A stretch of 64,000 nucleotides of DNA from contig CAZKGL010000001.1 of NCBI GenBank assembly GCA_964552565.1, forward strand, positions 119,649 to 183,648, read 5' to 3'. Positions 15,211-44,415 of the stretch are shown one piece after another (within the stretch, counting starts at the first letter, position 1; the number at the start of each line of letters is the position of its first letter). Made by a program: the position numbers and the translations under genes. The stretch is from an uncultured Gammaproteobacteria bacterium (lineage in GTDB: Bacteria > Patescibacteriota > Patescibacteriia > UBA9934). Under the pieces are notes generated by a model. It was not told the DNA's origin. It made no database searches and worked only from the letters and a program-made list of their open reading frames with translations.

Positions 15211-15250
15211 GCTGTGTCAGCCTGGAGGCGTCAACCCACTGGAGGATCCG

Positions 15251-15904
15251 ATGACCACGATTGTCCGCACCTTCGACGAGGCCCGGGAGGCGCTCGCGCG
15301 CTTCGACGCCGAACACTGGAAGCACGAGGACGGCATGCCGACCGTGCGGCACGTGCTCCTCCATCTCGTGAAGATGGGGCGGGTGCATTGCCTCGACCAG
15401 CTCGCGGTGAGCCAGGAGCACCGCGCGGAGGTCTACGACCAGGCGGTGCAGCGGCTCCTCGAGAACAGCCTGCGCCTCGAGCGCGCGGCCGGCGGCCGCC
15501 TCAAGGACGAGCACGAGTGGCTCGCCTCGCTCTACGGCGAGCCGCCGGATTGTCGCGGAGGAGGCTACGGGCGCGGCGCCGGTCTCGGCCTGCTGTACCA
15601 GGACTACGAGCAGATGGGGCCGTACCGCGCGGTCTGGCGGCACATGGCCATCCCCTTCGACGCGCTCACGACCGTCGTCCACGCGTGGGAGCACGACCTG
15701 CACCCTGTCGAGTCGTACGCGAAGCGCATCACCGAGTGCGCCGACATGCTGCGCGACGCGGCGTTCCTGTTCCGCATGTACGGCGCCGAACGCGCCGATG
15801 CGCGGTGCCGCCGGATTCTCCGCGAGGCCACGGACGAGGAGGCTGTCGTGGACATCCTCGAGCCGCTCGGCCGCCGCCTCGACTACCTCTGGCAGCGCGA
15901 ATAG
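15251..15904 (+). CDS. hypothetical protein
   Basis: ORF with high-GC third-position bias. GGAGG sits 5 nt upstream of the ATG at 15251. The longer track ORF from 14765 overlaps hisS and is rejected. Confidence 0.45.
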   Translation: MTTIVRTFDEAREALARFDAEHWKHEDGMPTVRHVLLHLVKMGRVHCLDQLAVSQEHRAEVYDQAVQRLLENSLRLERAAGGRLKDEHEWLASLYGEPPDCRGGGYGRGAGLGLLYQDYEQMGPYRAVWRHMAIPFDALTTVVHAWEHDLHPVESYAKRITECADMLRDAAFLFRMYGAERADARCRRILREATDEEAVVDILEPLGRRLDYLWQRE

Positions 15905-15972
15905 TGCGTGCCGACCCGTGCCCGGGCTCCGACTGGAGTCCGGGCGCAGCCGTTTTCCGGGGGCTTCCCCGC

Positions 15973-16001
15973 TTGACGGAAGCACGGGATTCCGCTACAC
16001 T
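15973..16001 (+). promoter_or_regulatory. sigma70-like promoter upstream of rpsU
   Basis: TTGACG, a 17-nt spacer (gaagcacgggattccgc), then TACACT. Shares the TTGACnGAAGCAC extended -35 with the promoter at 48631. Confidence 0.5.
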
Positions 16002-16036
16002 TCGGCCAACTCCAACTAGAAAGGAAGGTGGCAACC

Positions 16037-16288
16037 ATGTCGTCAATCGAAGTCAAACGCAAAAAGGGCGAGAGCTTTGAAGCGGTGTTCCGCCGCTTTA
16101 CGCGTCGCCTCCAGCAGAGCGGGAAGGTCCTGACGGTGCGCGGCAAGCGTTTCCGCAGCAAGGATCCGAACAAGAACCGCAAACACGACAGTGCCATCCG
16201 TCGCCTTGAAATGGGCGCCAAGCGCGAGTACCTCTTGAAGACCGGCAAGGTCAAAGAAGAGGACCTCCAGCAGGCACGCCGCCGCTAA
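16037..16288 (+). CDS. rpsU: 30S ribosomal protein S21
   Basis: MSSIEVKRKKGESFEAVFRRFTRRLQQSGK... matches the S21 family. AAGGAAGG SD lies 8 nt upstream. Confidence 0.9.
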   Translation: MSSIEVKRKKGESFEAVFRRFTRRLQQSGKVLTVRGKRFRSKDPNKNRKHDSAIRRLEMGAKREYLLKTGKVKEEDLQQARRR

Positions 16289-16302
16289 TACGGCACACGA
16301 AG

Positions 16303-16329
16303 CAGGGGATAACCCCTGTTTTGTGTTTT
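16303..16329 (+). terminator. intrinsic terminator after rpsU
   Basis: CAGGGGATAACCCCTG followed by TTTTGTGTTTT. Confidence 0.75.
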
Positions 16330-16383
16330 GGTACAATGGAAGTACGCGCAAACCCTAATTCAACTCCCCGCAAGCATGCTTTT

Positions 16384-16704
16384 ATGTTTGATAACGAGAC
16401 CGTGGCACAGCTGCGAGGGATTATTCGTGAGGAAGTCCAAGGGGGGGTTGACGGCATCGATGGGCGGTTTGCCGCTATCGATGCCCGATTCGACGCTATT
16501 GATGCCCGATTTGAGCGTGTCGATGCCGAGTTTAAGAGTATTGATGACCGGTTTGAACGGCTTGAGCAGAAAATTGAACGCGAGGTCGATGCATTGCGGA
16601 CGGACATGCATGCGGAATTCGCAGCGCAGCACCGCCGCATCATCAGCGATGTCGGCGAGATGATCGAGCAGAACGTCTTGCCTCACGTATTCCGCCACGC
16701 ATAA
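16384..16704 (+). CDS. hypothetical small coiled-coil protein with tandem IDxRF repeats
   Basis: IDGRFAAIDARFDAIDARFERVDAEFKSIDDRFERLEQ repeats. The start is taken at the ATG of MFDNET. An extended -10 (TGgTACAAT) at 16330-16337 precedes it. Confidence 0.5.
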   Translation: MFDNETVAQLRGIIREEVQGGVDGIDGRFAAIDARFDAIDARFERVDAEFKSIDDRFERLEQKIEREVDALRTDMHAEFAAQHRRIISDVGEMIEQNVLPHVFRHA

Positions 16705-19076: not shown

Positions 19077-19135
19077 ACGAAGTGCGGTACAATAGGTGCA
19101 CTGAATTCCCCGTGCTTGTCCTTGTGGAGAATGTT

Positions 19136-20944
19136 GTGCGTCTCAGAAAATGTTCGTATCCCTTCATCCTCGCCGCGCTCGCGGCCGGCGTGGTGCTGTT
19201 TGCGCCCGACGCGTTCGCGCAGACGGATTCCGTCGAAGAGGTCGGCACCGCCGCGGGGTTCGGCACCGCCGGGCTCATGGAGATCGTCGGTACCATCATC
19301 TCCGTGGTGCTCGGCATCCTTGGCGTGGTCTTCCTGCTCCTCATCATCGCGTCCGGCTTCCTCTGGATGACGGCGGGCGGGAGCGAGGACAAGGTGAAGC
19401 GCGCGAAACGCATCCTCATCAACGCGACGATTGGCCTCGTCATCGTCCTCATGTCGTACGGCATCGCGTCGTTCATCTTGAACGCCATCGGGGACGCGAC
19501 CGGATTCGATGCGGACGGCGACGGAAGCTCGGTCTCGACCGAGCCGCGTTCGGGTTCGCTCGGCAGCGGCAGCATCCGCGACCACTATCCGGAGCGCAAC
19601 GCGACCGACATCGCCCGCAACACCCGCATCATCGTTACGTTCTCGGACGCGATGGACATCGAGTCGTTTATTACCGGCTACGACACGAACGACACGCCGG
19701 ACGACACGAGCGACGACACGACCGCGACCGCCATCAACAGCGACATGGTGCAGATTTACCAGTCCGGCGACGAGTCGACGACGCTCACCGACGTCAGCGT
19801 TGCGTTTACCGACGATTTGAAAACCTTCGTGTTCGACCCTGCGGAGTACCTCGGCAGCGCGACCGAGGACGTGTCGTACACGGTTTCCCTCAGCACGAGT
19901 ATCGAGACCGCGGACGGCGAGGACGCATTCACCGGCGTGTACAGTGGCGGGTATGAATGGTCGTTCGAAGTCGGCACGACCATCGACCTCGACCCGCCGA
20001 GCATCCAGAGCGTCATCCCGGTCGAGGGCCAGAGTTACGACCGCAACATCACGGTCGAGATTACGTTCGACGAAGCGATCGACCCGACGTCGGCGTCGGG
20101 GACCCGCGAGGCGGACAGCGGCTTCCAAAATATTCAGACGGTGGGCACGTCGGGCGCGCCGGAGGCGGGAACCTACGAGATCAGCAACGGCTACCGCACC
20201 GTAACCTTTACGTCTACCGACGCCTGCGGGACGAATTCGTGCGGCGAGACCATCTACTGCTTGCCCGCGAACGACAGCATCACGGTGACCGCGTACGCCG
20301 CCACCGCGGAGAGCGACCCGCCGCAAGCGGACAGCTTCCCCTACGACGGTATCGTCGACACTGCCGCGAACAGCATGGACGGCGACGGCGACGGGACCGC
20401 GGGCGACGACTACGAATGGAGTTTTACGACGACCGGCGACATCAACCTCGAGGGCGCGACTATCGAGTCGATCGCCCCGGACATCCTCGCCGAAGGACAG
20501 GCGCTCGACCAGGACGTGGTGATCACCTTCGACGACATCATGCGCACCTCGACCCTGACGAGCGACAATATTACGCTCGAAAACTACGAATCCTCGACCG
20601 GTTCGACGCACGAGATGTACTACCTGCCGCGTGCGACGAGCCTGGACAGTTCCGGCGCGGAAGTGACGTCGGATACGCAGACGCCGGTGCAGACGCAGGT
20701 GACGGTCGGCCACGGCATCTTCCTCGAGTCGGTCGACGGGCTGACGTACCTCTACGGCGTCATGGTCGGCGAAGGCGTGGAGAACCAGTACCAAAACTGT
20801 TATAGCCCGGCCGAAGGTCCGGACGCGACCGGCGGCGCGTGCGGCGTCGACGACAACTCGCCGTCATGCTGTAACGGTTCCGCCTCGTCCGAGACGTGCG
20901 ATTTCTTCCCGGACGCGACCACCACGACCTCGACCTCCTCATAA
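19136..20944 (+). CDS. secreted/surface protein with CPR-type T4SS-pilin-like N-terminal domain (paralog A)
   Basis: Signal peptide, then a two-TM hairpin with the motif FLWMTAGGSEDKVKRAKRIL. C-terminal ~470 aa is an Asp/Thr-rich extracellular region. The start is ambiguous, from the track GTG at 19082 to the GTG at 19136. Confidence 0.6.
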   Translation: MRLRKCSYPFILAALAAGVVLFAPDAFAQTDSVEEVGTAAGFGTAGLMEIVGTIISVVLGILGVVFLLLIIASGFLWMTAGGSEDKVKRAKRILINATIGLVIVLMSYGIASFILNAIGDATGFDADGDGSSVSTEPRSGSLGSGSIRDHYPERNATDIARNTRIIVTFSDAMDIESFITGYDTNDTPDDTSDDTTATAINSDMVQIYQSGDESTTLTDVSVAFTDDLKTFVFDPAEYLGSATEDVSYTVSLSTSIETADGEDAFTGVYSGGYEWSFEVGTTIDLDPPSIQSVIPVEGQSYDRNITVEITFDEAIDPTSASGTREADSGFQNIQTVGTSGAPEAGTYEISNGYRTVTFTSTDACGTNSCGETIYCLPANDSITVTAYAATAESDPPQADSFPYDGIVDTAANSMDGDGDGTAGDDYEWSFTTTGDINLEGATIESIAPDILAEGQALDQDVVITFDDIMRTSTLTSDNITLENYESSTGSTHEMYYLPRATSLDSSGAEVTSDTQTPVQTQVTVGHGIFLESVDGLTYLYGVMVGEGVENQYQNCYSPAEGPDATGGACGVDDNSPSCCNGSASSETCDFFPDATTTTSTSS

Positions 20945-20953: not shown

Positions 20954-23900
20954 ATGTCACGCTTCCGACTTCGCCATGTCCTGCCATTCCTCGCCGGTCT
21001 TTCCTTGATCGGCGTGTTGGCGTTTACGCCGGACCTTCTTGCGCAGAGCGAAAGCCTGACGGAGGTCGGCGATGCATCGGGTCTCGGCAGCGAGGACCCG
21101 CGTATCATCATCGCCAACATTATCCGGACGTTCCTGACGGTCCTCGGCGTTCTTGCGGTGCTCATCGTCCTCTACGGCGGCTGGGTGTGGATGACGGCGG
21201 GCGGGAATGCGGAGAAGGTCGAGAAGGCGAAGAAGATCCTCATCCGCGGCGGTATCGGCATCGCGATTATCCTCATGTCGTGGGCCATTACGACGTTTGT
21301 CATTACGGCGCTTCTTGATTCGACCGGCGGGAGCGGCGGGAGCGGCGACGACAGCGATGGTTCGGGCGGCGGCGTCCTCGGCGGCGGCAGTACGACGAGT
21401 TTCAGCGTGACCGACTACTCGCCGGAAGGCGCGGTGTCCATCCGCAACGTCCAGCTGCGCGTGACGTTCTCAAAGACGCTCGACGACGAGACGGTCGAGG
21501 GCAACATTGTCGTGACGAACGCGTCGAGCGGGGAGGCAGTGGACGGCGCCATTACCGTCAGTGGGAACAAGGCGACGTTCGTCCCGAGCGCGGCCTGCCC
21601 GTCGCCCAACGAAGACCGTTCCTGTTTTGACGCGGACACGGAATTTACCGTGACGGTTTCGGAAGCCATCGAGAGCTCCTCCGGCACTGCGCTCACCTGC
21701 GGCGCGGACGACTGTACGTCGAGCTTCACGACCGGCAGCCTCGTCGATACCGAAGACCCGGTCGCGGAAATCACGGATCCGGAGCGCGGCGACGGGGTCG
21801 AGGCGGGCAGCGTGGAGACCATCCAGGTCCATGCGACCGATGACACGGAAGTCTCCGGAGCAGATTTTTCGCTCGATGAGGAGGAATTCGATTCGGTCGG
21901 CGCGGAAGGTGACGACTTGAGCGACGTGACGATTGAATCGACGTGGGACACGACCGAACTCACGGTGGGGCAGGACTACGAAATCTCCGTGACGGTCACG
22001 GACATCGCGGGGAACACGGATGGCGTTTCCGTCGACGTCACTGCGCGGGGCGCGTGGTGCTTTAACGACGAGATCGACGAGGAATACGGAGAAACGGGAT
22101 TGAACTGCGGCGGCGACTCGTCGAGCGCGGAGTATTGCGGCGCATGCGACGGTTCGAGCTGTACCGAGGATTCAGAATGTTCCAGCGGCAGCTGTGTCGA
22201 CGGCGTCTGTACCACCTTGCCGGAGATCGAGAGCGTCTCGCCGGGCAGCGGCGCGGTCGGGACGTACGTCACGGTCAGCGGCTCCGGCTTCGGCACGAGC
22301 ACGGGGACGGTGGCGTTCACATCGGAGGACGGGACCACCACGGTCGAAGCCGACATCCCGTCGTGCAGCGACGGCTGGTCGGACACCGAGATCGTCGTCG
22401 AGGTGCCGGAGGGCGCGGGCGACGGCCCGATTACCGTGACGACGGACGATGACCTTTCCGACGCGACGGACGATGACGCGGGCGCGCTCATCGACGATTT
22501 TGACGTGAACGATACCGAGCGGCCGAAGCTATGCTCGCTCTTCCCGGACGAAGGCGAGTCGACCGACGGGACGACGCTCTCCGGTTTGGACTTTGGCGAC
22601 GAGCAGGGGAGCTCGACCGTGTCGTTCGGGACGTCCGCCGCCGGCTCGTATACGAGCTGGGAAGACACGTCGGCCAGCGTCACCGTCCCGGCCTTGGAGG
22701 ACGGTGAGTATGACGTGGTCGTGACCGTCGATGGCGTCGAGTCGAACGCGGTGACGTACACCGTGGAAGAGGACACGACCGGCGACCCGGTGATTACCGG
22801 CATCGACCCGTCCGAGGGCGCGGTCGGCGACTACATCACAATCAGCGGTGAAAACTTCGGCATCCTCGTCGGTACCGTCCGTCTTGTCGACGATGCGGGC
22901 AACGAGGCGGTCGCTGAAGTCGATTTCCCTGAGGAATGCGCGGAGGACTATTGGGAGCCGACCGAGATCACCGTCATCGTCCCGGAGGAGTATCAGAGCG
23001 GCGACGGGCTCAGTGCCGGCGCGTTTGACGTGTACGTGGTGACGCAGGAGGGCGCCGAATCGGACACGACGAGTTTTACCGTCGAGGACGGCGACCCGTC
23101 GCCGGGTATTTGTGCGATTGATCCTGACGTCGGCCTCGCGGGGACGTCGGTAACGATCTATGGCGAGCGCCTCGGGTCTGACGAGGGTTCGGTCGCGTTT
23201 TACGACGAGGACGGCGACGTGGCCGCGACGGTCGACGAAGACGGTTGGTCGAGCGATGCAATCTCGCTGACGGTCCCAAGCGGGGCCGAGACCGGCCCGG
23301 TGACGGTGACGTCGTCTGCGGGCGATGAGAGCAACAGCATTGATTTTGAAGTCTCCGATGCCGGCGCTGCGGAAACCGAGACGGAGCCGGCATCGTACGG
23401 ATGGTACTTCTCGACCGGCGAAATCCCGGAGACCCCGGAGCTGCTTGTGGAGTGTTCGGACGACCGCATCAGCGGCGTGCCGAACAACCGGTTCACGTCT
23501 GACGGCGTCTGCGTGGAGGCAATGGTGTACGGCGAATTCTCCACGGTCATGAACGAAGGGTCGATCACGGACGCGCTGACGGTGGAAATGTGTACTGCCG
23601 CCGGCGAACAGCCGTGCGACACGACGACCGACGTCACCGGCGACGGCACGCTTGAGGTATCCTCGTCGACGACGAGCACGACGTTCAGCTGGTCACCGTC
23701 GTCGACCTTTACCGCAGACACGACGTATCGAGTAACCGTCTCGACCGCCGCGATGTCGGACGAGGCGCAGGCGCTCGACGACGACGTATCGTGGGAGTTC
23801 ACGACCGCATCGTCCTCGGAGACGTGCGAGGTCGACACCGTCCATGTCGTTCCGAGCGCGGCGACGATTACCGAACAATACGCGACCGAGCAGTTTACCG

Positions 23901-26900
23901 CGGTGCCCGCCGACGGCTGTGTCGTCGTCGACGGCGACGACTATACGTGGGACTGGTACGTCTACAGCGGCGTCGCAAACCTGACCAGCGACGACGAGTG
24001 CGCGGGCGGCACGACCGACTGCACGCTTGTTGAGGCGCTTGCGGAGGGCGAAGCGGATGTCATCGCGGAAGAAACCGCAAGCACGACGAGCGGCCAGGCA
24101 GACCTGACCGTGGCGTTTACCGATCCGTACGTCTCGGATTACTGGCCGGATTGCGACCAGGCGTGCAGCAACGGCGAGATCGGGGCGAGTTTCAATACTG
24201 CGGTCACGAGCACTTCGCTCGAAACCGACGGCCGCGTCGAACTGTACGAATGCGACAACGAGCTCTGCGCGGTCGGTCCGGCGGACGAGTACGGGTCGTA
24301 TGACGTGGTCGCGACCGATTGCGACGACGATGACCCGTCGTTGTGCGCGGGGGTGGCGATTTCACCCGATGCGGAGCTGACCCCGGGGACGTATTACCGC
24401 GCCGTCATCAGCCGTCGCGTGGAAACCCCGAGCGGCGTTTCGTTGACGCGCACAAACTACGATACCGGCTTCTCGTGGGTGTTCCGGGTGATGGAGGGCG
24501 ACGCGACGTGCGCCGTCGAACGCATTGAAGTGACGCCGGTCGACGCGGTTGCGGACGCCATCGGCGACCGCCAGACCTTCACGGTCGACGCGTACGGCAC
24601 GCCGGACGCGTGTTCCGTCGCGGGCCAGCTCTTGTCCGCATCGGACTACGACTGGTCGTACGGCGCATGGTCCGACGACGGGAGCGACGCGGCAGTCGAT
24701 GTCGCGGATTGGTGGGATGTCGGGTCTTCGAGCGGTTTTGTCGACACAAGCATCGAAGACGTCCCGGAGGGCTGCACGGCCTCGTGTATCCCGTCCGGCA
24801 GCACGGCGCTCGACGCCGTGTGCGGCGATGGAACCGTGGACAGCGACGCGGGAGAAGAGTGCGAAGACGGGAACACCGCGGACGACGACGGGTGTTCGTC
24901 GAGCTGTCTGTATGAAGGGTCGGAGACGACCTGCGGCGACGATGTCGTCGATACGTACGAGGAGTGCGACGACGGCGGAATCGCGGACGGCGACGGATGC
25001 TCCTCCGTCTGTCTGAACGAGGGGTCCCGCGCGATCGGCACGACGTGCGGCAATGATGACGTCGCATACGAAGCGGACCAGGGCGGCGAGGATTGCGACG
25101 ATGGCAACGTCGTGAACGGCGACGGATGCTCCTCCGTCTGTCTGAACGAGGGGTCGCTGACCCTCACCGATGTTGGCGGCGCCGTGTGCGGCGACCTCGA
25201 TATTACCGAGCCGTACGAAACCTGCGATGACGGCGGCACGACGGACGGCGACGGCTGCTCGTCCAACTGCACCCGCGAAGGCGCGGACGGCAGCTACGGG
25301 ACCTGCGGCAACGACAGCACGGAGCAGGGGACGTACGGCGAAGGCGAGGATTGCGACGGCGAAGAATGGTGCACGGATTCCTGCACGTACGGCGGATCGT
25401 CCGTCACGTACTCCGAGCCCTCGTTCTGCGGCGACGGCACGGCCGGCCTCGGCGAAGTGACCGCCTGCGAATCGTCGGGCGGCGACGACAACACCGACTC
25501 GCTCCAGCTTGCGTACATTACCGACGACGCTGCACAGGAGGTCGATACGGACACGAACGTCGCGATTGCAACCGTCACGGTGACTGAGCCCGAGTCCGGC
25601 CTTTCGACGGACGTGACGTACACGCTGGCGTGTTCCGCCGCGACCGACACGGACTGCTCGGATCCGGAAACGTATGGCGTCGGCCTCGGGAACTGCTGCA
25701 TTGCGCGCCCGACCGCGACCCTGTACCCGAACGGCACGGATGCCTGCCGCAACGCGGCGATCTACGGCATCTTCACCCAGGAGATGGACCTCGGCTCGTT
25801 CAGCGTCACCGACACGGACGGCGACACGACGCCGCGGATGTACCTCGTGCTCGACACCTCGACGACCGACGACGGCGCGTGTCCGTACGACGACGAGCTC
25901 GCATGGCTCGGCGAGGACTCTTGGATTGCGGAGACATGGCTGCGCATCCGCCGCATCGTGACCGGCCACGCCGCGGAAGCGGCGCCGGGCGAGGACGAGT
26001 GCGTCCTGCCGGTGTCGAGTTACGCCCAGGAAGCGCAGGACGACGGGACGTTCAAGGTGCGGATGCGCTACGGCGAGGCGCTCGAGGCGGACGTGACCTA
26101 CACGCTGCGCATTGAGGTCGACAGCGACAACACGGACACGAGCAAGGACGGCGTGCTGTCCGCGGACAATGTCGCCATGTACGACGCCGACGGCGTGATT
26201 GAAGAAACATTCTCGACCGGCAGCGAAATCTGCACGCTCGACAGCGTTGTTGTGGAAGATACGGACGACGAGAGCCCGTATTACTTCTCGCAGTACGGCG
26301 AGGAGCATACCTTTACGGCAACCGCGTACTCGTACAACGGCTCGACCCGCCAAGAGCTCGAATCCATCGACGATGTCTACTCGTGGACGTGGTCGAGCTG
26401 GGAGGAGGAGGCGAGCGAGTCGGTCGTGGATGTCGCGCAGAGCACGACCACGGGCACTGAGGACGAAGCGGCGGTCGAGGCGACCGGCGAAAACGGCGAG
26501 GCGGTCATCGTCGCGACCGCTACCATTGAGGACGACGTGGTCGGCGACAGCGAGGGCGAGGAGGTGACCGGCTCGGAGGATGTCGTGGTCTACCTTTGCC
26601 AGAATACGTGGCCGGACATTACGGCGACCGAATTCCCTTGGAGCGACGACGAGGACGGTATTGATAACGGCGCGGAAGAGGGGAACGGCTGGATGAACTT
26701 CTCGACGTACTTCTGCCGCGACAGCGGGGAAGCGGACGACACAAGCGACGACCTGCCAGGCGTCAACGTCGTGTATGCAACGGATTACTCGAGCGCCGAC
26801 GACATCCTGAAGGAGTATCTCTTCGAGGTCGACGACGGCAGCGGGGACGCGATCGGCTTCCGTATCGTGTCGAATTCCGAGTACTTGGGCCCGGAACAGT

Positions 26901-29900
26901 GGTTTGAGGCCCAGGGCTTCTCGGGTTCGCCGCAGACGACCACCATCGACGGCTTCCAGGCGGTCACCGATGGCCGCACGACGTACGTCGCGGCGCCGAA
27001 CCAGTCGGACACCTCGCTGTACTCGAATATCTACGTCATTTCGTACAACGAAGGGGCGAGCGAGGAAACGACCGACCTGTACGACCAGATCCTCGAAAAC
27101 ATCTCGTTCGCCATCAACGTCGACAACGACTGCGACGCGGAGGACGGCGAAACCTGTACGGACGCATGGAGCACGCTCCAGCGCGACACGAAGCGCCTTG
27201 CGGACCTCACGACGGTCGCCGCGCTCGTTGAGACCTATGTCGACGAGAACGGCGTCGTGCCGCCGCTGTCGTCCGGTACGTACGTCCGGAGCATGGGGTC
27301 AAGCGTCTGGGATTCGTGGGGCGACCTGCTCGGCGCGGCGCTCGGCGACTCCGATCTGCCGACCGACCCGCGCAACACCTATGACGGCTGCGGCGCGGAT
27401 CCGTTCGCGTCCTACGACGAGGATACGTGCGTGAACGAAACCGCCGGCCAGTACCTCTGTCCGGAAGGGTCGTACGCCTACCATTACCGCGCGGTCGGCA
27501 CCGACGGGGTCACGCTGTATGCGGACCTCGAGTATGACGATGCGGCATGGGTGAACCCGATCGACGCCGATACGTCGGACGACATCGACTACGAGGTGTA
27601 CAGCGCCATGAGTTCCGGCGACGGCTTTACGTCGACCGCGTTCTGCGACGGCTCCTCGAGCGGCGGCACCGTGTACGGCTCGACCGGTTCGTGCGGCGAC
27701 GGCGTCGTGAACACGAGCATCGACAGCGACGGCGACGGCACGGCGGACACGGTGGAGACGTGCGAGATCGGCGAGTCGGGCGGTACTGCCGAATGGTGCG
27801 ACAGCGACCTTGCGAGCGACGGCGACGGGGACGGCGATCCGCTCAACGATTGGGACGGCTCGGTGAGCCAGACCTGCAACAGCGCCTGTACCGGCTGGAC
27901 CGACGACAGCGACGCCGAGTGCGTCCTGTGGTCATGCGGCGACGGCGTCGTGGACACCACCGACGGCGAGGAATGCGACGACGGCGCGCTGAACGGGCAG
28001 TACGGCTATTGCAGCAACACCTGCTCGTACGACGACGCGTTCTATTGCGGCGACGGGTCGCTTGCGGGCAGCGAAACCTGCGACTGCGGAGCGCCGGGCG
28101 AGAGCACGATCGTCGACCCGACGCAGTCGCGCCCCTACGGCGGCACGAGCTATAGCTGCGTGACGACCGAAGGTAACGGCACCTACGACGAAAATCCGTA
28201 CAACACCTGCGCATGGGATTGCCAGGGCCCGGCGTCGTACTGCGGCGACGGCGTCGTCGACAGCGGCGAAGAGTGCGACGGCGACACCGAGCACTGGGAA
28301 GGCAAGCTCTGCAATCTGTACTCCACTGCGGATACGTTCGGCCAGGCGTGCGAGACGGACGCGGATTGCGAGCGGTACTCGGATGCATCGCTGCCGAACG
28401 CCTTGTGCGGCGACGCGAGCAACGACGACTTCGAGGCGTGTCCGGAAACGACGGTCTGCGTCGCGGGCACCACAAGCCTCATCGGCACGGAGTGTACGGC
28501 CGACAGCGACTGCGGGACCGACGGCGCCTGCTCGGACATCGCCTACCAGACCTACCGCACCCGGACGTGCGAGGACGACGGTGCGAGTGGGGAAACGTGC
28601 GACTGGGACGTCCCGTCCCTCGGCCTCTACGGCATCTCGTGCACGGCACTCGGGAGCTGCGGCGACGGCACGGTGGACGACAATGAGGAGTGCGACGACG
28701 GCAATGACGATTCGACCGACTCGTGCACGAACGAGTGCACGGACAATGTCTGTGGCGACGGGTACCTCTACGTCGGCGAAGAGCAGTGCGACGAAGGGAC
28801 GGAAAATGGACAGGGCTGCAGTTCGAGCTACGAATCGACCTGCACATCCTGTTCGGAGACGTGCCGGTACGAAACGTCGTCCGGCGACTTCTGCGGCGAT
28901 GGCGAGATCAACGGCGACGAGTACTGCGACGCCTACGCCATGCCGTACCAGTATGCGATCAGCGTGACGTACGATGAGGCCGAATCTGAAGACGACTTCA
29001 ATCCGTTCGCCGGCGAGACGGTCGTGTGGACGTATGGCGACTCCTGTGACACGCTCGGTGAGACCGTTATCGATTATGCGGACGAGTCGGACGAGTCGGA
29101 TGTCACCTACACCTGTTCCATGATTGGGTACTGTAACGGCGGCGACAGCAGCTACGGCGGCAACGGCGACGAGTGCTTGACCGACTCGGACTGCGATGAA
29201 GGCGACTGCGTCATGACCGTCTGCGCGGATGATTGCGACAACACGTGCCCGGAGACATACGAGTCCACCGCGCTCCTCCTCACCGCGGAGCAGCCGGGCG
29301 CGACCGCAGAGACTGCGGTCGACCTGTACACGTACTCCGACAGCGGGGAAGCGGAGGTGCCGAACTCGGCGACGATCACGTTCCCTGCCTGTACCATCGC
29401 GTCTTCGCTCGTTGCGGACATCTCGATGGACAACGTGGAACTGACCGAGTACTACATCGTCTTCGTGACCGACACGTCGGGATCTATGGATGACAGCTTC
29501 GATGGTTCCCAGACGTCCGGCGTCCCCGTCGACGAGCAGCGTATTACCGCCGCGGTCGACGTGCTCCGTGAGGCGATCCAGAGCCTGTACGATGCAAGCG
29601 AAAACATGCATATCGCGCTCGTGCAGTATGACGACACTGCGTACGAGGAAACGTCCGGCGACGGCGGGCCGACGGCATTCACGGACGCCGACCAGGAATC
29701 CAACCTTCTGTCCACCATCAACAGTTACTACGTTGCGGGCGGCACGACAGAGACCGACGACGGCCTTGCCATGGCGAAGGCGCTCCTCGACAGCGAGGCG
29801 TCGGACCGCACCTCGAACGTCCGGAAAATCATCGTCCTCCTCTCGGATGGGGAAGAAAATAGCACGTCCGATGCGGGAAGCGTGGCGGACGAGATCAAGG

Positions 29901-30316
29901 CCGTCGACCTCGACGAGGACGGCGTGGACGATTACGAGCTCTACACCGTCGCGCTGACGAGCGTCGACACGCTCATTACGACCATGAACGGCTGGTCGAG
30001 CAATAGCGGGAGCGCGCTCGCATCGAACAACATCGACTACGCCTACGACGGCGACACGGAAGATGAGCTTGAAGACTCCTACGAGGACATCGTCGCGTCC
30101 ATCGCGCAGCCGACCATCGCCATCATCTCGTCCGACGGCTCGACGACCTATACGACGACCGACGAGTTTGAAGAGGGTTCCGGGGTCGACTTCCCGTGGC
30201 CGGAAGGGTTCTCGTGCGACCAGGACGACGAACAGGAGCTGCCGATCCGTATTACGTTCCCGGGCGAAGGCACGATCGAAATCAGCAATGTCCGGTTCGA
30301 GTATTGCGCCCCCTAG
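20954..30316 (+). CDS. giant surface adhesin-like protein (3120 aa): T4SS-pilin-like N-terminus, 4 IPT/TIG domains, Cys-rich DUF4215-like repeats, C-terminal vWA domain
   Basis: N-terminus is paralogous to the previous gene (WVWMTAGGNAEKVEKAKKIL). IPT/TIG modules at about 22.2-23.4 kb (VSPGSGAVGTYVTVSGSGFG). CGDGxVDxxEECDDGNxxxGDGCSSxC repeats at about 24.8-25.5 kb and 27.7-28.9 kb. MIDAS DTSGSMDD vWA domain at about 29.45-30.0 kb. Confidence 0.75.
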   Translation: MSRFRLRHVLPFLAGLSLIGVLAFTPDLLAQSESLTEVGDASGLGSEDPRIIIANIIRTFLTVLGVLAVLIVLYGGWVWMTAGGNAEKVEKAKKILIRGGIGIAIILMSWAITTFVITALLDSTGGSGGSGDDSDGSGGGVLGGGSTTSFSVTDYSPEGAVSIRNVQLRVTFSKTLDDETVEGNIVVTNASSGEAVDGAITVSGNKATFVPSAACPSPNEDRSCFDADTEFTVTVSEAIESSSGTALTCGADDCTSSFTTGSLVDTEDPVAEITDPERGDGVEAGSVETIQVHATDDTEVSGADFSLDEEEFDSVGAEGDDLSDVTIESTWDTTELTVGQDYEISVTVTDIAGNTDGVSVDVTARGAWCFNDEIDEEYGETGLNCGGDSSSAEYCGACDGSSCTEDSECSSGSCVDGVCTTLPEIESVSPGSGAVGTYVTVSGSGFGTSTGTVAFTSEDGTTTVEADIPSCSDGWSDTEIVVEVPEGAGDGPITVTTDDDLSDATDDDAGALIDDFDVNDTERPKLCSLFPDEGESTDGTTLSGLDFGDEQGSSTVSFGTSAAGSYTSWEDTSASVTVPALEDGEYDVVVTVDGVESNAVTYTVEEDTTGDPVITGIDPSEGAVGDYITISGENFGILVGTVRLVDDAGNEAVAEVDFPEECAEDYWEPTEITVIVPEEYQSGDGLSAGAFDVYVVTQEGAESDTTSFTVEDGDPSPGICAIDPDVGLAGTSVTIYGERLGSDEGSVAFYDEDGDVAATVDEDGWSSDAISLTVPSGAETGPVTVTSSAGDESNSIDFEVSDAGAAETETEPASYGWYFSTGEIPETPELLVECSDDRISGVPNNRFTSDGVCVEAMVYGEFSTVMNEGSITDALTVEMCTAAGEQPCDTTTDVTGDGTLEVSSSTTSTTFSWSPSSTFTADTTYRVTVSTAAMSDEAQALDDDVSWEFTTASSSETCEVDTVHVVPSAATITEQYATEQFTAVPADGCVVVDGDDYTWDWYVYSGVANLTSDDECAGGTTDCTLVEALAEGEADVIAEETASTTSGQADLTVAFTDPYVSDYWPDCDQACSNGEIGASFNTAVTSTSLETDGRVELYECDNELCAVGPADEYGSYDVVATDCDDDDPSLCAGVAISPDAELTPGTYYRAVISRRVETPSGVSLTRTNYDTGFSWVFRVMEGDATCAVERIEVTPVDAVADAIGDRQTFTVDAYGTPDACSVAGQLLSASDYDWSYGAWSDDGSDAAVDVADWWDVGSSSGFVDTSIEDVPEGCTASCIPSGSTALDAVCGDGTVDSDAGEECEDGNTADDDGCSSSCLYEGSETTCGDDVVDTYEECDDGGIADGDGCSSVCLNEGSRAIGTTCGNDDVAYEADQGGEDCDDGNVVNGDGCSSVCLNEGSLTLTDVGGAVCGDLDITEPYETCDDGGTTDGDGCSSNCTREGADGSYGTCGNDSTEQGTYGEGEDCDGEEWCTDSCTYGGSSVTYSEPSFCGDGTAGLGEVTACESSGGDDNTDSLQLAYITDDAAQEVDTDTNVAIATVTVTEPESGLSTDVTYTLACSAATDTDCSDPETYGVGLGNCCIARPTATLYPNGTDACRNAAIYGIFTQEMDLGSFSVTDTDGDTTPRMYLVLDTSTTDDGACPYDDELAWLGEDSWIAETWLRIRRIVTGHAAEAAPGEDECVLPVSSYAQEAQDDGTFKVRMRYGEALEADVTYTLRIEVDSDNTDTSKDGVLSADNVAMYDADGVIEETFSTGSEICTLDSVVVEDTDDESPYYFSQYGEEHTFTATAYSYNGSTRQELESIDDVYSWTWSSWEEEASESVVDVAQSTTTGTEDEAAVEATGENGEAVIVATATIEDDVVGDSEGEEVTGSEDVVVYLCQNTWPDITATEFPWSDDEDGIDNGAEEGNGWMNFSTYFCRDSGEADDTSDDLPGVNVVYATDYSSADDILKEYLFEVDDGSGDAIGFRIVSNSEYLGPEQWFEAQGFSGSPQTTTIDGFQAVTDGRTTYVAAPNQSDTSLYSNIYVISYNEGASEETTDLYDQILENISFAINVDNDCDAEDGETCTDAWSTLQRDTKRLADLTTVAALVETYVDENGVVPPLSSGTYVRSMGSSVWDSWGDLLGAALGDSDLPTDPRNTYDGCGADPFASYDEDTCVNETAGQYLCPEGSYAYHYRAVGTDGVTLYADLEYDDAAWVNPIDADTSDDIDYEVYSAMSSGDGFTSTAFCDGSSSGGTVYGSTGSCGDGVVNTSIDSDGDGTADTVETCEIGESGGTAEWCDSDLASDGDGDGDPLNDWDGSVSQTCNSACTGWTDDSDAECVLWSCGDGVVDTTDGEECDDGALNGQYGYCSNTCSYDDAFYCGDGSLAGSETCDCGAPGESTIVDPTQSRPYGGTSYSCVTTEGNGTYDENPYNTCAWDCQGPASYCGDGVVDSGEECDGDTEHWEGKLCNLYSTADTFGQACETDADCERYSDASLPNALCGDASNDDFEACPETTVCVAGTTSLIGTECTADSDCGTDGACSDIAYQTYRTRTCEDDGASGETCDWDVPSLGLYGISCTALGSCGDGTVDDNEECDDGNDDSTDSCTNECTDNVCGDGYLYVGEEQCDEGTENGQGCSSSYESTCTSCSETCRYETSSGDFCGDGEINGDEYCDAYAMPYQYAISVTYDEAESEDDFNPFAGETVVWTYGDSCDTLGETVIDYADESDESDVTYTCSMIGYCNGGDSSYGGNGDECLTDSDCDEGDCVMTVCADDCDNTCPETYESTALLLTAEQPGATAETAVDLYTYSDSGEAEVPNSATITFPACTIASSLVADISMDNVELTEYYIVFVTDTSGSMDDSFDGSQTSGVPVDEQRITAAVDVLREAIQSLYDASENMHIALVQYDDTAYEETSGDGGPTAFTDADQESNLLSTINSYYVAGGTTETDDGLAMAKALLDSEASDRTSNVRKIIVLLSDGEENSTSDAGSVADEIKAVDLDEDGVDDYELYTVALTSVDTLITTMNGWSSNSGSALASNNIDYAYDGDTEDELEDSYEDIVASIAQPTIAIISSDGSTTYTTTDEFEEGSGVDFPWPEGFSCDQDDEQELPIRITFPGEGTIEISNVRFEYCAP

Positions 30317-30324: not shown

Positions 30325-31152
30325 ATGCAAGGCCTTGAAGACCAACAATTCTTTACCCCGGGTGAGCCGCAACCGCCGCATGGCGGGGGCGGCCACTCGC
30401 GGCGTGCGCTCGTCATCGCGGTTGTCGCGGTGGCGGCGCTTGCGGTCGCGGTCCTTCTCGGCCTGTACATCAAGAACCGGTTCACCGGACCCTTCAGTGA
30501 CGGGTATGGCGACGGAACCGATATTGAGGCCGACATTGCGTCCGAAGTCAGCCGGGAATGCGCGGACGCCGACGATGTCGCCGCGTGCGAGGATCGCGTC
30601 CGGTCAGAAATGGCGCAAGACGCGGCGATGCCCGAGGCGTGCGAGGGCCTCGAGGAGCCGGCATTCACGAACTGTGTCATGCTCATTGCCCAGGACGAGA
30701 TGGACGCTGCGGTGTGCAGCGCACTTGATGCCGAGGCAAAGACGTCCTGCCAGGACGATGTCGCATTCCGCCTTGCGGTCGCGAATGAAGACTACGCCGC
30801 CTGCGCCGACCTTACCGACGAGACGCTCCGCGCGAATTGCGAAGCGCGCCTGCTTTCGGTTGTCATCGCTTCCGGCGACTGTGCCGCGTACGGCGTCGAC
30901 GCGTCGGTGTGCAATGGGCAGGCGCAGCTCGACGCGGTCATTGCAGCGGGCGATCCGGAGGGATGTAACACGCTCCCGGACGAGCTCGAGGGCGACTGCC
31001 GCGATGCATTTGCATCATTGGATGCCGACCACGACGGGCTCTCGCTTGGCGAAGAGTATGGTTACGGCACGGACCCGAAGAATGCGGATACGGACGGAGA
31101 CGGGTACAATGACGGTAGGGAAGTCCAAAACGGGTACGACCCGACGAAATAA
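30325..31152 (+). CDS. bitopic membrane protein with Cys-pair region and bacterial TSP3-like Ca-binding repeats
   Basis: Pro-rich N-terminus, single TM (LVIAVVAVAALAVAVLLGLY), C-terminal DADHDGLSLGEEYGYGTDPKNADTDGDGYNDGREV. Confidence 0.55.
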   Translation: MQGLEDQQFFTPGEPQPPHGGGGHSRRALVIAVVAVAALAVAVLLGLYIKNRFTGPFSDGYGDGTDIEADIASEVSRECADADDVAACEDRVRSEMAQDAAMPEACEGLEEPAFTNCVMLIAQDEMDAAVCSALDAEAKTSCQDDVAFRLAVANEDYAACADLTDETLRANCEARLLSVVIASGDCAAYGVDASVCNGQAQLDAVIAAGDPEGCNTLPDELEGDCRDAFASLDADHDGLSLGEEYGYGTDPKNADTDGDGYNDGREVQNGYDPTK

Positions 31153-31154: not shown

Positions 31155-31850
31155 TTGCATATGTTCGACAATCAACCGCAACCAAATCCGAACCCGAACC
31201 CGACGCCGTCGCCGGCGCCAAATGCCGAGGACATGTTTTCCGGCTTGGACGCCGGCAAACCCCCGGTCGCGCCGCCCGGCCCTGAGCCGCGTCCGTCCCT
31301 GACGCCGCAGACGCCGCAGATGCCCCCGCCCGAGGCCCCGAATGTCGGTCCCGGCGACCTTGGCCCGCGCACCGCGCGGTTCGGCGTCGTAAAGGTTGCG
31401 CTCATTGTCGCGCTGGTCCTCGCGCTCATCGCCGCGGCAGGGTATGCGGCGTGGAAGATCATGAGTCAGGCGCCGTCCGACGACGGTGTCGTGCAGAGTA
31501 TCGACGACACGACCGACGGCGAAGAAGAGGACTCGGAAGAGACGGAGGAGGCTCCGGACGAGACCGACGGAGCACTCACCGCGCCTGAGGAGGAAGAAGA
31601 GGAGGAGAGCTCGTTGTTTGACACCGATGGCGACGGACTCACGAATGCCGAGGAGCTTGAGGCCGGTACCTTGCCGAACCGCGCCGACACCGACAAGGAC
31701 GGCCTTGGCGACCGCGAAGAGGTCGAGGTCTACGATACCGATCCGTTGGAAGAAGACACCGACGGCGACACGTATCTTGACGGCCAGGAAGTGAAGGGCG
31801 GGTATAATCCCAACGGGCCGGGCAAACTTTTTGAAGTGCCCACCGAGTAG
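31155..31850 (+). CDS. bitopic membrane protein with TSP3-like repeats (paralog)
   Basis: MHMFDNQPQPNPNP Pro-rich N-terminus, TM, then DTDGDGLTNAEELEAGTLPNRADTDKDGLGDREEV...DTDGDTYLDGQEV. Confidence 0.55.
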   Translation: MHMFDNQPQPNPNPNPTPSPAPNAEDMFSGLDAGKPPVAPPGPEPRPSLTPQTPQMPPPEAPNVGPGDLGPRTARFGVVKVALIVALVLALIAAAGYAAWKIMSQAPSDDGVVQSIDDTTDGEEEDSEETEEAPDETDGALTAPEEEEEEESSLFDTDGDGLTNAEELEAGTLPNRADTDKDGLGDREEVEVYDTDPLEEDTDGDTYLDGQEVKGGYNPNGPGKLFEVPTE

Positions 31851-31855: not shown

Positions 31856-32914
31856 ATGTTCGACAAGGCGGCGAAACAACCTACGGCTCCCGCCACCCCT
31901 GCGGCTCCTTCGGCCTCTGGGGCGAATGATTATGTCATCCACACGATGCCGCGGGAGTTTTACGGCAAGGAGGCGTCGCTCGTCACCCCCCCTAGCCCCC
32001 CCATGCATGGAGGGGAAACTCCTCCGACACCGCCCCCACCGCCGCCCCCGAAGCCCGTGCCGGCTCCAAAGCCCATTCCACCGTCCACTGTCCCACCGAA
32101 ACCTAAGCGCTCCGTGAAGGGCATGGTGGTCATCGCGGTCATCGCCATGATGATCATCGCTGCGGGCGCGTACGCCGCGTCCGTCATCATTGCGTCGGTC
32201 AAGGAGCAACAGCGCCTGACCGAATTGGAGTTGCAGCGCGCCGAGCAGGAGGCCGAGGCCGAGCGCGAGCGTGCGGAGGCGCTTGCGGAAGCCGCTGCGC
32301 AGGCCGAAGAAGAGGCGGAAGAGGTCGCGAAGGACACGGACAGCGACGGGCTTACGGATATCGAGGAGTTGCTCTACGGTACGAATTTCCGCGAGCCGGA
32401 CAGCGACAAGGACAGCTACCTGGACGGCAACGAGGTGTTCCATCGGTATCACCCGCTCGGCGACGCGCCGGCGACGCTGCTCGACACGGGCGCGGTGAAG
32501 GTCTTCGAGGACGCGTTGTACCCGTTTACGATGTACTACCCGTCGAGCTGGAGCACTTCGCTTGACGAGACGAATATGACGGTGGCGTTCCGTTCGTCAC
32601 GGCAGGCGTCTATCACCGTCGAGTGGGAAGAGAAGCCCGCCGATGAAACGCTTGCGGACTGGTACGACGCGTCGCACACCGACCGCGCGTCCGGCGACCT
32701 CAAGGAGATCCTGACGAAGGAGGGGTATTACGGCCTGACGACTGCGGACGACCGGACGGCGTACCTCGACTTCGGCGGCGACGCGGTCATCACGCTGACC
32801 TACGATCTTGGCAGCCGGACGCAAGTCGAATACCTCCAGACGTTCCAAATGATGGTGAACAGCCTCACGATGGTCGAGGATGTCGTGACGCCGGAGGAAA
32901 CGACGACGCCATGA
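31856..32914 (+). CDS. bitopic membrane protein with coiled coil and TSP3-like repeats (paralog)
   Basis: MFDKAAKQP... Pro-rich N-terminus, TM, Glu/Ala coiled coil, DTDSDGLTDIEE...DSDKDSYLDGNEV, then a ~150-aa C-terminal domain. Confidence 0.55.
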   Translation: MFDKAAKQPTAPATPAAPSASGANDYVIHTMPREFYGKEASLVTPPSPPMHGGETPPTPPPPPPPKPVPAPKPIPPSTVPPKPKRSVKGMVVIAVIAMMIIAAGAYAASVIIASVKEQQRLTELELQRAEQEAEAERERAEALAEAAAQAEEEAEEVAKDTDSDGLTDIEELLYGTNFREPDSDKDSYLDGNEVFHRYHPLGDAPATLLDTGAVKVFEDALYPFTMYYPSSWSTSLDETNMTVAFRSSRQASITVEWEEKPADETLADWYDASHTDRASGDLKEILTKEGYYGLTTADDRTAYLDFGGDAVITLTYDLGSRTQVEYLQTFQMMVNSLTMVEDVVTPEETTTP

Positions 32915-43531: not shown

Positions 43532-43575
43532 GGCCGTGAATTACGGATGATGAATATTTCCTCGTTGGTGGACCT

Positions 43576-43959
43576 GAAGGGAGTTGAACCCTTGTCTGGT
43601 CGGAGATGCCCTGTCGATGGTTTCCAAGCTCAGTAGCGCTTGGTGTGCGCGCTATCCCTTAAAGCGTTACGAAAAAGGATAGACCGCGTTCCCGTCCAAC
43701 AGGTCGCATCATGAGACGGGAATCATGATGCCGAGCATGCGGTTATAACACCCGTTGTCCACCTGCATACTCGATGGGACGGATGGGCGCACGGCGCTTA
43801 GGCGGTGGCCAGAGCGAGCGACGGCATGCGGAACGCAGCCTTCACGCGCTGAGAGAAGCTGTTGGCATTTCTCGGTTGCATCGTGTGATGACGAAGGACG
43901 ATGCACCTCCGGCTTGATCGGGCAGGGAACCGATTCCGCCATCGAAGCCTGGCAGGCCC
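43576..43959 (-). ncRNA. ssrA: tmRNA (ssrA)
   Basis: 5' GGGCCUG pairs with 3' CAGGUCC-A-CCA, including the G3·U wobble. T-arm GGGUUCAACUCCC and PK1 GGUGCAUCG are present. It sits 12 nt downstream of smpB. Candidate tag ORF GCC AAC ... TAA encodes ANSFSQRVKAAFRMPSLALATA. Confidence 0.8.
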
Positions 43960-43971
43960 CTCGACGGAGAA

Positions 43972-44415
43972 CTATTCCTTAAGCCGTTGTCGGATCTCGC
44001 GCTCGATGTCGCGCTTCTTGATGACCTCACGTTTTTCGTGCTGCCGTTTTCCTCGCGCAAGCGCAAACCCAAGCTTGACAAGATCGCCTGTAGTGTAGAC
44101 AGAAACCGGCACAATCGTCAACCGTTCGGCCTCATGTTTTCCGCGAATGGCATTGATTTCTTTCTTATGGACGAGGACGGTGCGGTCGCGGGTCGGGTGG
44201 TACTTCTCCGGAGATCCTGACGGCGCATAATGACCGATGTGCATGCCGCGGATGACGAGCTCGCCGCCGACGATGTCGAGGTACGACCCCTTGAGGTTGA
44301 CGTGACCCGCTTTTGCCGCCTTCACTTCGGCCCCCGTCAACGCCAAACCGCCCTCGAACCGATCGAGGAGTTCATAGTCATGGAGCGCACGCGCGTTTTT
44401 TGCGAGCTCGGGCAT
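43972..44415 (-). CDS. smpB: SsrA-binding protein SmpB
   Basis: MPELAKNARALHDYELLDRFEGGLALTGAEVKA... Only the 3' 444 nt of the long track ORF is real. Confidence 0.9.
   Translation of the reverse strand: MPELAKNARALHDYELLDRFEGGLALTGAEVKAAKAGHVNLKGSYLDIVGGELVIRGMHIGHYAPSGSPEKYHPTRDRTVLVHKKEINAIRGKHEAERLTIVPVSVYTTGDLVKLGFALARGKRQHEKREVIKKRDIEREIRQRLKE

Follow-up and report, generated by a model that had tools for sequence, protein, structure and literature searches.

A conserved family of giant Patescibacteria proteins with a VirB2-like hairpin and alternative C-terminal tips: a candidate adhesion fibre

Pilus subunits that carry von Willebrand factor A (VWA) or lectin modules for adhesion have been described, among them PilB and PilC of Streptococcus sanguinis and RrgA (PMC8179133). 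In Patescibacteria, a survey of 3035 genomes reported VirB2-like pilins and pilin arrays and no adhesin of a type IV secretion system (T4SS) (PMC12102498), and adhesins, type IV pili and a T4SS with a pilin array were found to be essential for the epibiotic growth of a Saccharibacterium (PMC10633639). Giant membrane proteins have already been proposed as attachment factors in the candidate phyla radiation (CPR) (PMC8080830). Here, we analysed a 64,000-nucleotide stretch of contig CAZKGL010000001.1 (assembly GCA_964552565.1), called the window below, and in it a gene for a protein of 3120 aa (the giant), which forms a five-gene module with the paralogue pilin620 directly upstream and the genes TSP3a, TSP3b and TSP3c directly downstream.

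We propose, with a probability of roughly 55%, that the giant is a hairpin-anchored, disulfide-rich, strongly acidic adhesion fibre of the Patescibacteria surface. An adhesin with a distal binding module is the most economical reading, supported by a tip that is the least conserved part of the protein and is swapped between lineages. Its extracellular character is supported by 126 Cys residues (4%) and an isoelectric point (pI) of about 4.05, against ordinary values in the cytoplasmic neighbours. The initial annotation had suggested a modular adhesin; the modular architecture holds, and adhesion is what we infer from it.

Like the modular type IV pilins PilB (VWA) and PilC (concanavalin A (ConA)-like lectin) of S. 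sanguinis, the giant consists of a pilin-type N-terminal module, a linker and putative adhesive modules (PMC8179133). Its VWA domain has a complete metal ion-dependent adhesion site (MIDAS), as in PilB, and the alternative between VWA and ConA-like lectin recurs across its family (PMC8179133). Unlike these pilins, it has a VirB2/TrbC hairpin behind a Sec signal instead of a class III signal and a type IV pilin fold, more than 30 modules instead of one or two, spread over an ectodomain of about 3000 aa, and no pilus machinery genes nearby. The small VirB2-like pilins of Patescibacteria (PF18895; PMC12102498, PMC10633639) show the same signal peptide, two helices and basic loop, and they occur in arrays, as two hairpin genes are adjacent here; however, those described are small and often lie beside virB4, whereas the giant has a 3000-aa C-terminal extension and a housekeeping neighbourhood without T4SS genes. 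RrgA of Streptococcus pneumoniae, PilA of group B Streptococcus and PilY1-type proteins also place a VWA domain with a MIDAS distally on a long appendage, but these are sortase-linked (LPXTG) or tied to type IV pili, while the giant is N-terminally anchored and lacks an LPXTG motif. By analogy, its mode of action may come closest to that of modular pilins or tip adhesins, with a pilin of the T4SS type in place of a type IV pilin as the foundation.

Giant membrane proteins of CPR bacteria such as Vampirococcus were likewise proposed to reach out and bind the partner surface (PMC8080830). Giant repetitive adhesins, such as SiiE, the RTX proteins LapA and MpIBP and the Gram-positive Ig-repeat giants, have a similarly long chain of beta-sandwiches and a Ca-related acidic composition. 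Instead of about 50 near-identical repeats, the protein described here has a domain mosaic, and it has a different anchor and belongs to a five-gene module; Pfam and NCBIfam revealed no RTX/HemolysinCabind repeats and no type I secretion signal in it, and its neighbours are TSP3 and housekeeping genes, not type I secretion genes. In the literature searched, which is incomplete, no paper dealt with the giant family, the five-gene module or a VirB2-type hairpin with a giant ectodomain.

A large family of full-length homologues

We searched the giant, whole and in fragments, against the curated profiles of Pfam and NCBIfam with their gathering scores. All domain matches lay in one frame over the whole length of the protein (327 kDa), in agreement with the single 9.3-kb open frame of the initial annotation. 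The gene contains no near-identical DNA tandem repeats and thus no signature of repeat-driven misassembly, which indicates that the protein repeats are old and diverged; a recent repeat expansion was rejected for the same reason. Scans for promoters and terminators gave nothing above shuffled controls. A reading as a toxin or polymorphic toxin was also rejected, since Pfam and NCBIfam showed no enzymatic or toxin domain.

In a scan of species-representative genomes, we found ten loci. Seven of them carry complete collinear open reading frames (ORFs) of 2956-3639 aa that align essentially end to end with the window protein. The orthologue of locus L002 (3114 aa) shares 46% identity over aa 3-3120, and the value is 27-34% for the others. 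Across the recovered loci, GC content ranges from 38% to 67%, and it is 38-62% for those with the six other full-length orthologues. An exhaustive HMMER search with aa 1540-2250 against 1.84 billion cluster representatives then gave 1334 matches, with E<=1e-30 in 571 cases. Among the 150 best, more than 100 are proteins of 3000-4000 aa with the match at an equivalent position. Using local hidden Markov models (HMMs) built from the family alignment, we found the hairpin, the TIG block, the Cys repeats and the middle module together in 103 of the 107 examined representatives of at least 2800 aa. The remark in the initial annotation that this is not a standard adhesin architecture is therefore misleading, since exactly this arrangement is usual in a large Patescibacteria family. 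The databases name family members "IPT/TIG", "DUF4215", "vWA domain-containing" or "cysteine-rich repeat protein" and give as source "Patescibacteria group bacterium" or "Candidatus Uhrbacteria bacterium"; the closest named relatives belong to Candidatus Uhrbacteria. The window gene is thus one member of an existing, database-visible but unstudied family.

These results bear on whether the ORF could be an artefact, that is, a chimera produced by misassembly, a fusion masked by frameshifts or a chance frame. GC-rich DNA (63%) does yield many long spurious ORFs in other frames, and one orthologue is split: the copy of locus L001 (metagenome-assembled genome (MAG) GCA_964459775.1) is truncated at the contig end, has one frame switch at nt ~1963-1988 and is annotated as two proteins of 660 and 1270 aa. 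This is the sole disruption found among the loci, in a fragmentary contig that also truncates the gene, and the frame switch is probably an assembly error or a recent pseudogene. An artefact is contradicted by the single frame that holds the domain matches from end to end, by the absence of repeat-driven assembly signatures, by seven independent orthologues that are collinear over their full length and by over 100 database representatives of matching length. Full-length collinear orthologues in many genomes exclude a misassembly, a frameshift, a fusion or a chance frame, and we give this explanation practically no chance. Sequence comparison thus argues that the giant is a real, selected gene of a large conserved Patescibacteria family.

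The contigs of L002, L003, L007, L008, L010 and L011 are titled "uncultured Gammaproteobacteria bacterium" or "Candidatus Kapaibacterium sp.". Because their gene order is identical to that of Patescibacteria loci, these titles are almost certainly mislabels.

Anchor, stalk and tip of the giant

The features of the giant, all on the plus strand, are listed below with window coordinates.

20954..30316 (+): giant gene, ATG start, 3120 codons uninterrupted, longest ORF of the region
20954..21046 (+): predicted Sec-type signal peptide, aa 1-31 (...LLAQ/SES), with a hydrophobic segment at aa 6-30
21098..21322 (+): VirB2/TrbC-like pilin hairpin (PF18895), transmembrane (TM) helix 1 at aa 49-84, Lys-rich loop, TM helix 2 at aa 94-123
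21392..21973 (+): two membrane-proximal Ig-like domains, Big_5 (aa 147-260) and Big_7 (aa 269-340)
22058..22210 (+): small Cys-rich knot (8 Cys, aa 369-419), defined by its Cys positions, just before the TIG array
22220..23368 (+): four tandem IPT/TIG beta-sandwiches (aa ~423-805), Pfam TIG in 4 stretches
23501..24793 (+): further Ig-like stalk domains (aa ~850-1280), including two Big_5 (aa ~857-1100, E 4e-12)
24821..25483 (+): Cys-rich acidic block 1 (aa 1290-1510), ~6 CGDGxVDxxEECDDGNxxxGDGCSxxC units found by DUF4215, TIGR02232 and regular expression
25484..26563 (+): stalk without Pfam match (aa ~1511-1870), conserved in the family, weakly similar to the upstream Ig-like region
26591..27139 (+): middle module part 1 (aa ~1880-2062), LCxNxWP motif and beta-rich domain
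27140..27598 (+): middle module part 2 (aa ~2063-2215), Cys knot, then a domain of a long helix and beta-sheet
27692..29263 (+): Cys-rich block 2 (aa 2247-2770), ~8 CGDG-initiated units, several with long insertions
29456..29968 (+): VWA domain with complete MIDAS (aa 2835-3005), VWA E 1.8e-16, VWA_2 E 1e-12
29969..30313 (+): conserved C-terminal domain (~115 aa) after the VWA, ending ...FPWPxxFxC...YCAP, without Pfam match

The pilin-like N-terminal hairpin of the initial annotation was borne out. The T4SS_pilin profile PF18895 matched aa 52-116 with 35.5 bits in the N-terminal fragment and 28.3 bits in the whole protein (gathering score 26.6), and the pilin-like NCBIfam profile NF045849 gave a weak match (E 9e-5, 22 bits against a cutoff of 40). 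The strongly hydrophobic segments are only aa 6-30, 49-84 and 94-123, with none after aa 123, and the loop between the two helices holds four of the 15 Lys residues of the protein (K88, K91, K93 and K94). The signal sequence and the two-helix hairpin with its basic loop are kept in 9 aligned sequences, the hairpin is among the best-conserved blocks of the family (mean identity ~0.45-0.50), and the A-Q motif at the signal peptide, which is probably cleaved, is kept in the orthologue alignment. The predicted topology is that of VirB2/TrbC, with a signal peptide and a hairpin whose basic loop faces the cytoplasm, and this arrangement would place all residues after aa 123 outside the membrane as an ectodomain of ~3000 aa. 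A Gly/Ser-rich linker directly follows the hairpin. The C-terminus (...VRFEYCAP) shows no LPXTG, hydrophobic segment or other C-terminal anchor, and the N-terminus has no class III signal peptide, nor does the Pfam and NCBIfam output contain an N_methyl or type IV pilin family.

This anchor could also mean that the giant is a pilus-borne modular pilin, whose hairpin co-polymerises with small VirB2-like pilins encoded elsewhere in the genome and displays the ectodomain at the tip, base or side of a T4SS-type pilus, as the counterpart of PilB (VWA) and PilC (lectin). In F- and T-pilus structures, both termini of the VirB2/TraA pilin lie on the outside of the filament, with the C-terminus exposed. 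The PF18895 match above threshold, the strong conservation of the hairpin and the pair of adjacent hairpin genes fit this explanation, the pair amounting to a small "pilin array" of the kind described in 383 Patescibacteria assemblies, and in about 40% of assemblies the pilin genes are not near virB4 (PMC12102498). The VWA and ConA-like lectin tips are, moreover, those of the S. sanguinis modular pilins (PMC8179133). However, we found no VirB4, VirB6 or other T4SS Pfam family among the 40 window ORFs scanned, and no T4SS genes in the syntenic loci or the called genes of L001. If every subunit carried a 327-kDa cargo, a helical filament would be sterically impossible, so that the giant could at best be a rare or terminal subunit, and its 3120 aa compare with about 70-120 aa for a small mature VirB2 pilin. 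In addition, a hairpin profile of 9 sequences found no pilin among the PDB sequences at E<=10, including the solved VirB2/TraA chains, and VirB2 pili in Patescibacteria are themselves unproven. We therefore regard incorporation into a pilus as improbable.

The stalk between the hairpin and the tip consists mainly of beta-sandwich domains and Cys-rich repeats. Big_5 matched at three places and Big_7 with 29.4 bits. The four IPT/TIG domains that the initial annotation had placed at 22.2-23.4 kb were recovered by Pfam TIG in 4 stretches (E 2.8e-30, 104.6 bits), and self-comparison showed these repeats to be 30-42% identical to one another. Self-comparison also revealed internal similarity within the Ig-like stalk at aa ~850-1280, similarity of aa 1182-1258 to aa 1756-1835, and resemblance of the small Cys knot at aa 369-419, which has no Pfam match, to other Cys-rich units. 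Both blocks of Cys-rich repeats lie where the initial annotation had put them, but its count of 7-10 repeats per block came down to ~6 and ~8, and the units canonical enough for HMMs are fewer still (4-5 in block 1 and 2-3 in block 2). In block 1, the units start at aa 1290, 1327, 1365, 1412, 1451 and 1492, and DUF4215 matched with E 4.3e-11 (4 stretches, 43.4 bits). In block 2, they start at aa 2247, 2328, 2365, 2430, 2485, 2569, 2600 and 2647, and DUF4215 stayed at E 6e-5 and 23.7 bits, below its cutoff of 27; this block is much more degenerate, yet similar to block 1 in self-comparison. The Cys pattern was confirmed by TIGR02232 (myxo_disulf_rpt; E 1e-19, 5 stretches, 70.1 bits against a cutoff of 20.8), and DUF4215, TIG and VWA all gave matches above their curated thresholds. 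The units of the CGDGxVxxxEECDDGN...GDGCSxxC type are those of proteins with DUF4215/TIGR02232 repeats, but here they form only two blocks of a far larger architecture.

The composition of the protein is extreme: Asp accounts for 12.6% and Glu for 8.6% of residues (21% together), against 2.3% Lys plus Arg and 0.5% Lys. High Cys content is universal in the family (3.6-6.4% in homologues). The giant, pilin620, TSP3a and TSP3b have a pI of ~4.05, whereas the cytoplasmic neighbours range from 5 to 10, so the acidity is specific to surface proteins and not a property of the whole proteome; a salt-in halophile proteome as its source was rejected on the same grounds. The extreme values (pI ~4.05, Lys plus Arg 2.3-2.8%) are common only to the closest relatives, L002 and L003. 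More distant family members have a pI of 4.5-5.3 and 7-8.5% Lys plus Arg.

Between the two Cys-rich blocks, a region of ~700 aa (aa 1550-2250) has no Pfam match and had gone unrecognised in the initial annotation, as had the five-gene context. Its core at aa ~1880-2215 is the best-conserved block of the giant outside the N-terminus. Part 1 carries the motif IGxRxxxNxxxLxPxxW...GFxGxP...DGxxAVxDGRTTYVAAPN...YxNIYxISYN, and its beta domain is predicted, at low confidence, to have a PsbP/Mog1/LpqN-like fold. Part 2 carries RDxxRLxDxxxxxxxxxxY...G..PxLxxGT...S.WxSW...L...LPxDPxN; its aa ~2075-2215 are a probable but unproven type IV pilin/pseudopilin-like head domain that lacks the hydrophobic alpha1N helix. 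The two AlphaFold2 models of the module, built from only 8-11 sequences, reached a mean pLDDT (predicted local distance difference test) of 50 and 56, and the pilin-like domain found only chance matches to the GLP-1 receptor among PDB sequences (E about 0.6). The middle module is also the N-terminal part of small secreted proteins (P0002-P0005 and P0174-P0176, 207-924 aa); in P0002-P0005 (271-924 aa) it comes first and is followed by PKD or cadherin-like domains or DUF4215 repeats. Because it is found alone at the N-terminus of much smaller secreted proteins, it appears to be an independent, mobile module.

The VWA domain scored 61.3 bits with PF00092 (cutoff 23.8) and 49.1 bits with PF13519 (cutoff 27). 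Its MIDAS is complete (D2840-T-S2842-G-S2844, T2932 and D2965) and conserved in orthologues: in the aligned family tails, D is kept in 42/45, S/T in 46/46 and D in 55/66, and the residues are also kept in P0001 and P0007. The domain does not lie at the extreme C-terminus, as first annotated, but is followed by the ~115-aa domain, which has invariant columns in the orthologues and whose YCAP-type ending recurs in the family. Among PDB sequences, the VWA tail has no solved close relative. By analogy with integrin I-domains, RrgA and S. sanguinis PilB (PMC8179133), the VWA tip would bind its ligand in a metal-dependent manner.

In an eight-sequence full-length alignment, the other sequences share a mean identity of 0.3-0.5 with the window protein across most of aa 1-2650, but only 0.13-0.25 in aa 2650-3100. 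The conserved stalk can end in several alternative tips, and VWA is just one of these. Among the loci, L001, L002 and L003 have VWA, L008 has Laminin_G_3 (a ConA-like lectin) and L010 has CarboxypepD_reg; L004 has a weak CarboxypepD_reg match below the Pfam cutoff (E 0.0019), and the tips of L007 and L011 contain no recognisable domain. A local VWA HMM placed the domain at the extreme C-terminus of 51 of 98 database representatives, but it under-calls divergent tips (P0060, P0070 and P0064 show DxSxS...SDG by eye), and the VWA-tipped share is about half or more. The largest of the other tail clusters (21 members) has a CarboxypepD_reg-like unit, and at least one further cluster of eight members shows, by eye, a divergent VWA followed by extra domains. 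When each representative was compared with its nearest neighbour by middle-module similarity, the tip state was shared in 87 of 98 cases, against 48.5 +/- 5.9 after shuffling. The tips are therefore clade-specific with occasional switches and not hypervariable.

The five-gene module and its surroundings

The four partner genes of the giant are as follows.

19082..20944 (+): pilin620, 620-aa paralogue with signal peptide, T4SS_pilin hairpin, Big_5 Ig-like domains and Cys-rich C-terminus
30325..31152 (+): TSP3a, 275 aa, single-pass, Cys-rich acidic ectodomain, C-terminal Ca-binding TSP3 (TSP3_bac E 4e-6)
31155..31850 (+): TSP3b, 231 aa, Pro-rich N-terminus, one TM helix, acidic region with TSP3 repeats
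31856..32914 (+): TSP3c, 352 aa, Pro-rich N-terminus, one TM helix, charged coiled-coil-like stretch, TSP3-like repeat

The paralogue pilin620 (Pfam T4SS_pilin E 1.7e-6, Big_5 E 6e-13) ends 9 nt upstream of the giant and shares 32% identity with it in the first ~340 aa (E 2e-36); the true start of pilin620 is probably downstream of the listed GTG. TSP3a, TSP3b and TSP3c share Pro-rich cytoplasmic N-termini, one TM helix each and acidic ectodomains with TSP3 repeats. The five genes are separated by 2-9 nt or overlap, and the TSP3c stop overlaps the ybeY start. In all loci, aa 160-340 of TSP3c show 31-51% identity. The conserved C-terminal domain of TSP3c (~150 aa) has no family match.

The window is bacterial chromosomal DNA with a tmRNA, two tRNAs and housekeeping genes (TopA, DprA, Der, LytR, HisRS, YqeY, HflX, YbeY, DAGK, FtsA, FtsZ and pyruvate kinase (PK)); no rRNA lies within it, and its taxonomic placement goes no further than Uhrbacteria-like Patescibacteria. 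The order HisRS-YqeY-(HflX)-pilin620-GIANT-TSP3a-TSP3b-TSP3c-YbeY-DAGK-FtsA-FtsZ-(PK) was the same in all long loci and likewise in L001. TSP3a-c are conserved together with the giant in every locus, and pilin620 is directly upstream in all long loci. Since they are inherited together with the giant, pilin620 and TSP3a-c may be its partners in anchoring, spacing or Ca-dependent stiffening.

The same neighbourhood suggests a structural explanation, in which the five-gene module forms a constitutive coat or spacer (S-layer-like, fibrous, a cell-cell spacer or a division-linked scaffold) and serves cell integrity or shape, not host recognition. The module is single-copy and vertically inherited, its synteny just upstream of ybeY-dagK-ftsA-ftsZ is rigid across loci of 38-67% GC, and the stalk is conserved along its whole length. 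Surface-layer proteins typically have such an acidic, Ca-binding composition (here TSP3 partners and a pI of about 4), and one CPR bacterium has been observed to bear a fibrous coat that was ascribed to giant proteins (PMC8080830). On the other hand, VWA-MIDAS, lectin and CarboxypepD_reg tips are ligand-binding rather than lattice-forming and vary between clades, known S-layer subunits do not resemble a membrane hairpin joined to a 3000-aa mosaic of many different domains, and the position next to ftsAZ may merely reflect a conserved core-genome neighbourhood. We consider a purely structural role unlikely, though a slightly more serious competitor to the adhesion fibre than incorporation into a pilus.

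Several further observations concern other parts of the window. Positions 1-2000 have a GC content of 0.50 against about 0.62-0.68 elsewhere and contain an ORF of the APH phosphotransferase family (1228-2205, minus strand); this segment may be foreign DNA or an island edge. In the 1.5 kb between the HisRS gene and a HAD hydrolase gene (15214-16700), a 288-aa Arg-rich ORF with a pI of 12 and no Pfam match is probably a wrong-frame artefact. At 43566-45255 (minus strand), the tmRNA (77 bits) adjoins a 426-aa ORF with an SmpB domain only at aa 284-425, so that either the listed start is too far upstream or SmpB has a long N-terminal extension. Two adjacent ORFs of 733 aa (52285-54486, plus strand) and 482 aa (54590-56038, plus strand) contain 4-5 repeats of the MopE-type metal-binding motif (PF11617; E 1.6e-44 and 1.7e-29, respectively) and represent further secreted repeat proteins. 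Within 38900-64000, most long ORFs have no Pfam match at E<=1e-3, DUF5667 occurs in the ORF 61290-62456, and gene calls are uncertain owing to many overlapping ORFs on both strands of GC-rich DNA.

Proposed mode of action and significance

For the adhesion fibre, we propose the following course of events. After Sec export and cleavage of the signal peptide, the VirB2/TrbC-type hairpin would hold the giant in the single cytoplasmic membrane, with the Lys-rich loop toward the cytoplasm. The Gly/Ser linker would then lead into the ectodomain of ~15 Ig-like/TIG beta-sandwiches, ~14 acidic CGDG repeats and the middle module, and this stalk would project the distal module, here the MIDAS VWA with the small C-terminal domain, tens of nanometres from the cell. 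From our own sum of typical domain sizes, we estimate a possible fibre length of several tens of nanometres, with about 100 nm as the upper limit, which would be a large reach for a cell a few hundred nanometres across. Through a metal ion, the VWA tip may contact a ligand on a host cell or another surface. In other lineages, the same stalk with a different tip (ConA-like lectin or CarboxypepD_reg-like) would retarget the fibre. The giant would work together with pilin620 and the three single-pass TSP3 proteins as one conserved envelope module.

Some results weigh against an adhesion fibre. The tip mostly tracks phylogeny, unlike the rapid diversification typical of receptor-binding proteins, and strict vertical conservation in single copy at the ybeY-dagK-ftsA-ftsZ position would equally fit a housekeeping envelope role. 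The hairpin is possibly more than an anchor, as it would be in a pilus, the structural models of the middle module are weak, and the lifestyle of the uncultured source organism is an assumption from its phylum.

A bolder proposal, which we regard as a long shot and even more doubtful than a pilus-borne subunit, is that the family is the missing adhesin class ("modular VirB2 pilin") of the patescibacterial T4SS-like or pilus apparatus and the module a host-contact organelle. The hairpin would then insert the giant into a VirB2-type filament or nucleate one, and the internal pilin-like head would couple the fibre to type IV pili or tip complexes. Such an organelle would be lineage-wide and vertically inherited in Uhrbacteria-like Patescibacteria, with clade-specific tips setting the host range.

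The general idea that giant membrane proteins serve attachment in CPR bacteria has been published before (PMC8080830). New here are the conserved five-gene module and the internal module of PsbP/LpqN-like and pilin-like domains, whose folds come from low-confidence models. The PF18895 module, so far discussed as a small pilin, is also the N-terminal module of proteins of more than 3000 aa, which matters for the interpretation of "pilin" counts in Patescibacteria genomes. Host finding and attachment of ultrasmall Patescibacteria are largely obscure outside a few cultured Saccharibacteria, and the giant family provides a concrete candidate: it has 571 representatives at E<=1e-30, is recognisable from sequence, occupies a fixed genome position and combines a conserved stalk with a tip that differs between clades. 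The tip type could be compared with host or habitat.

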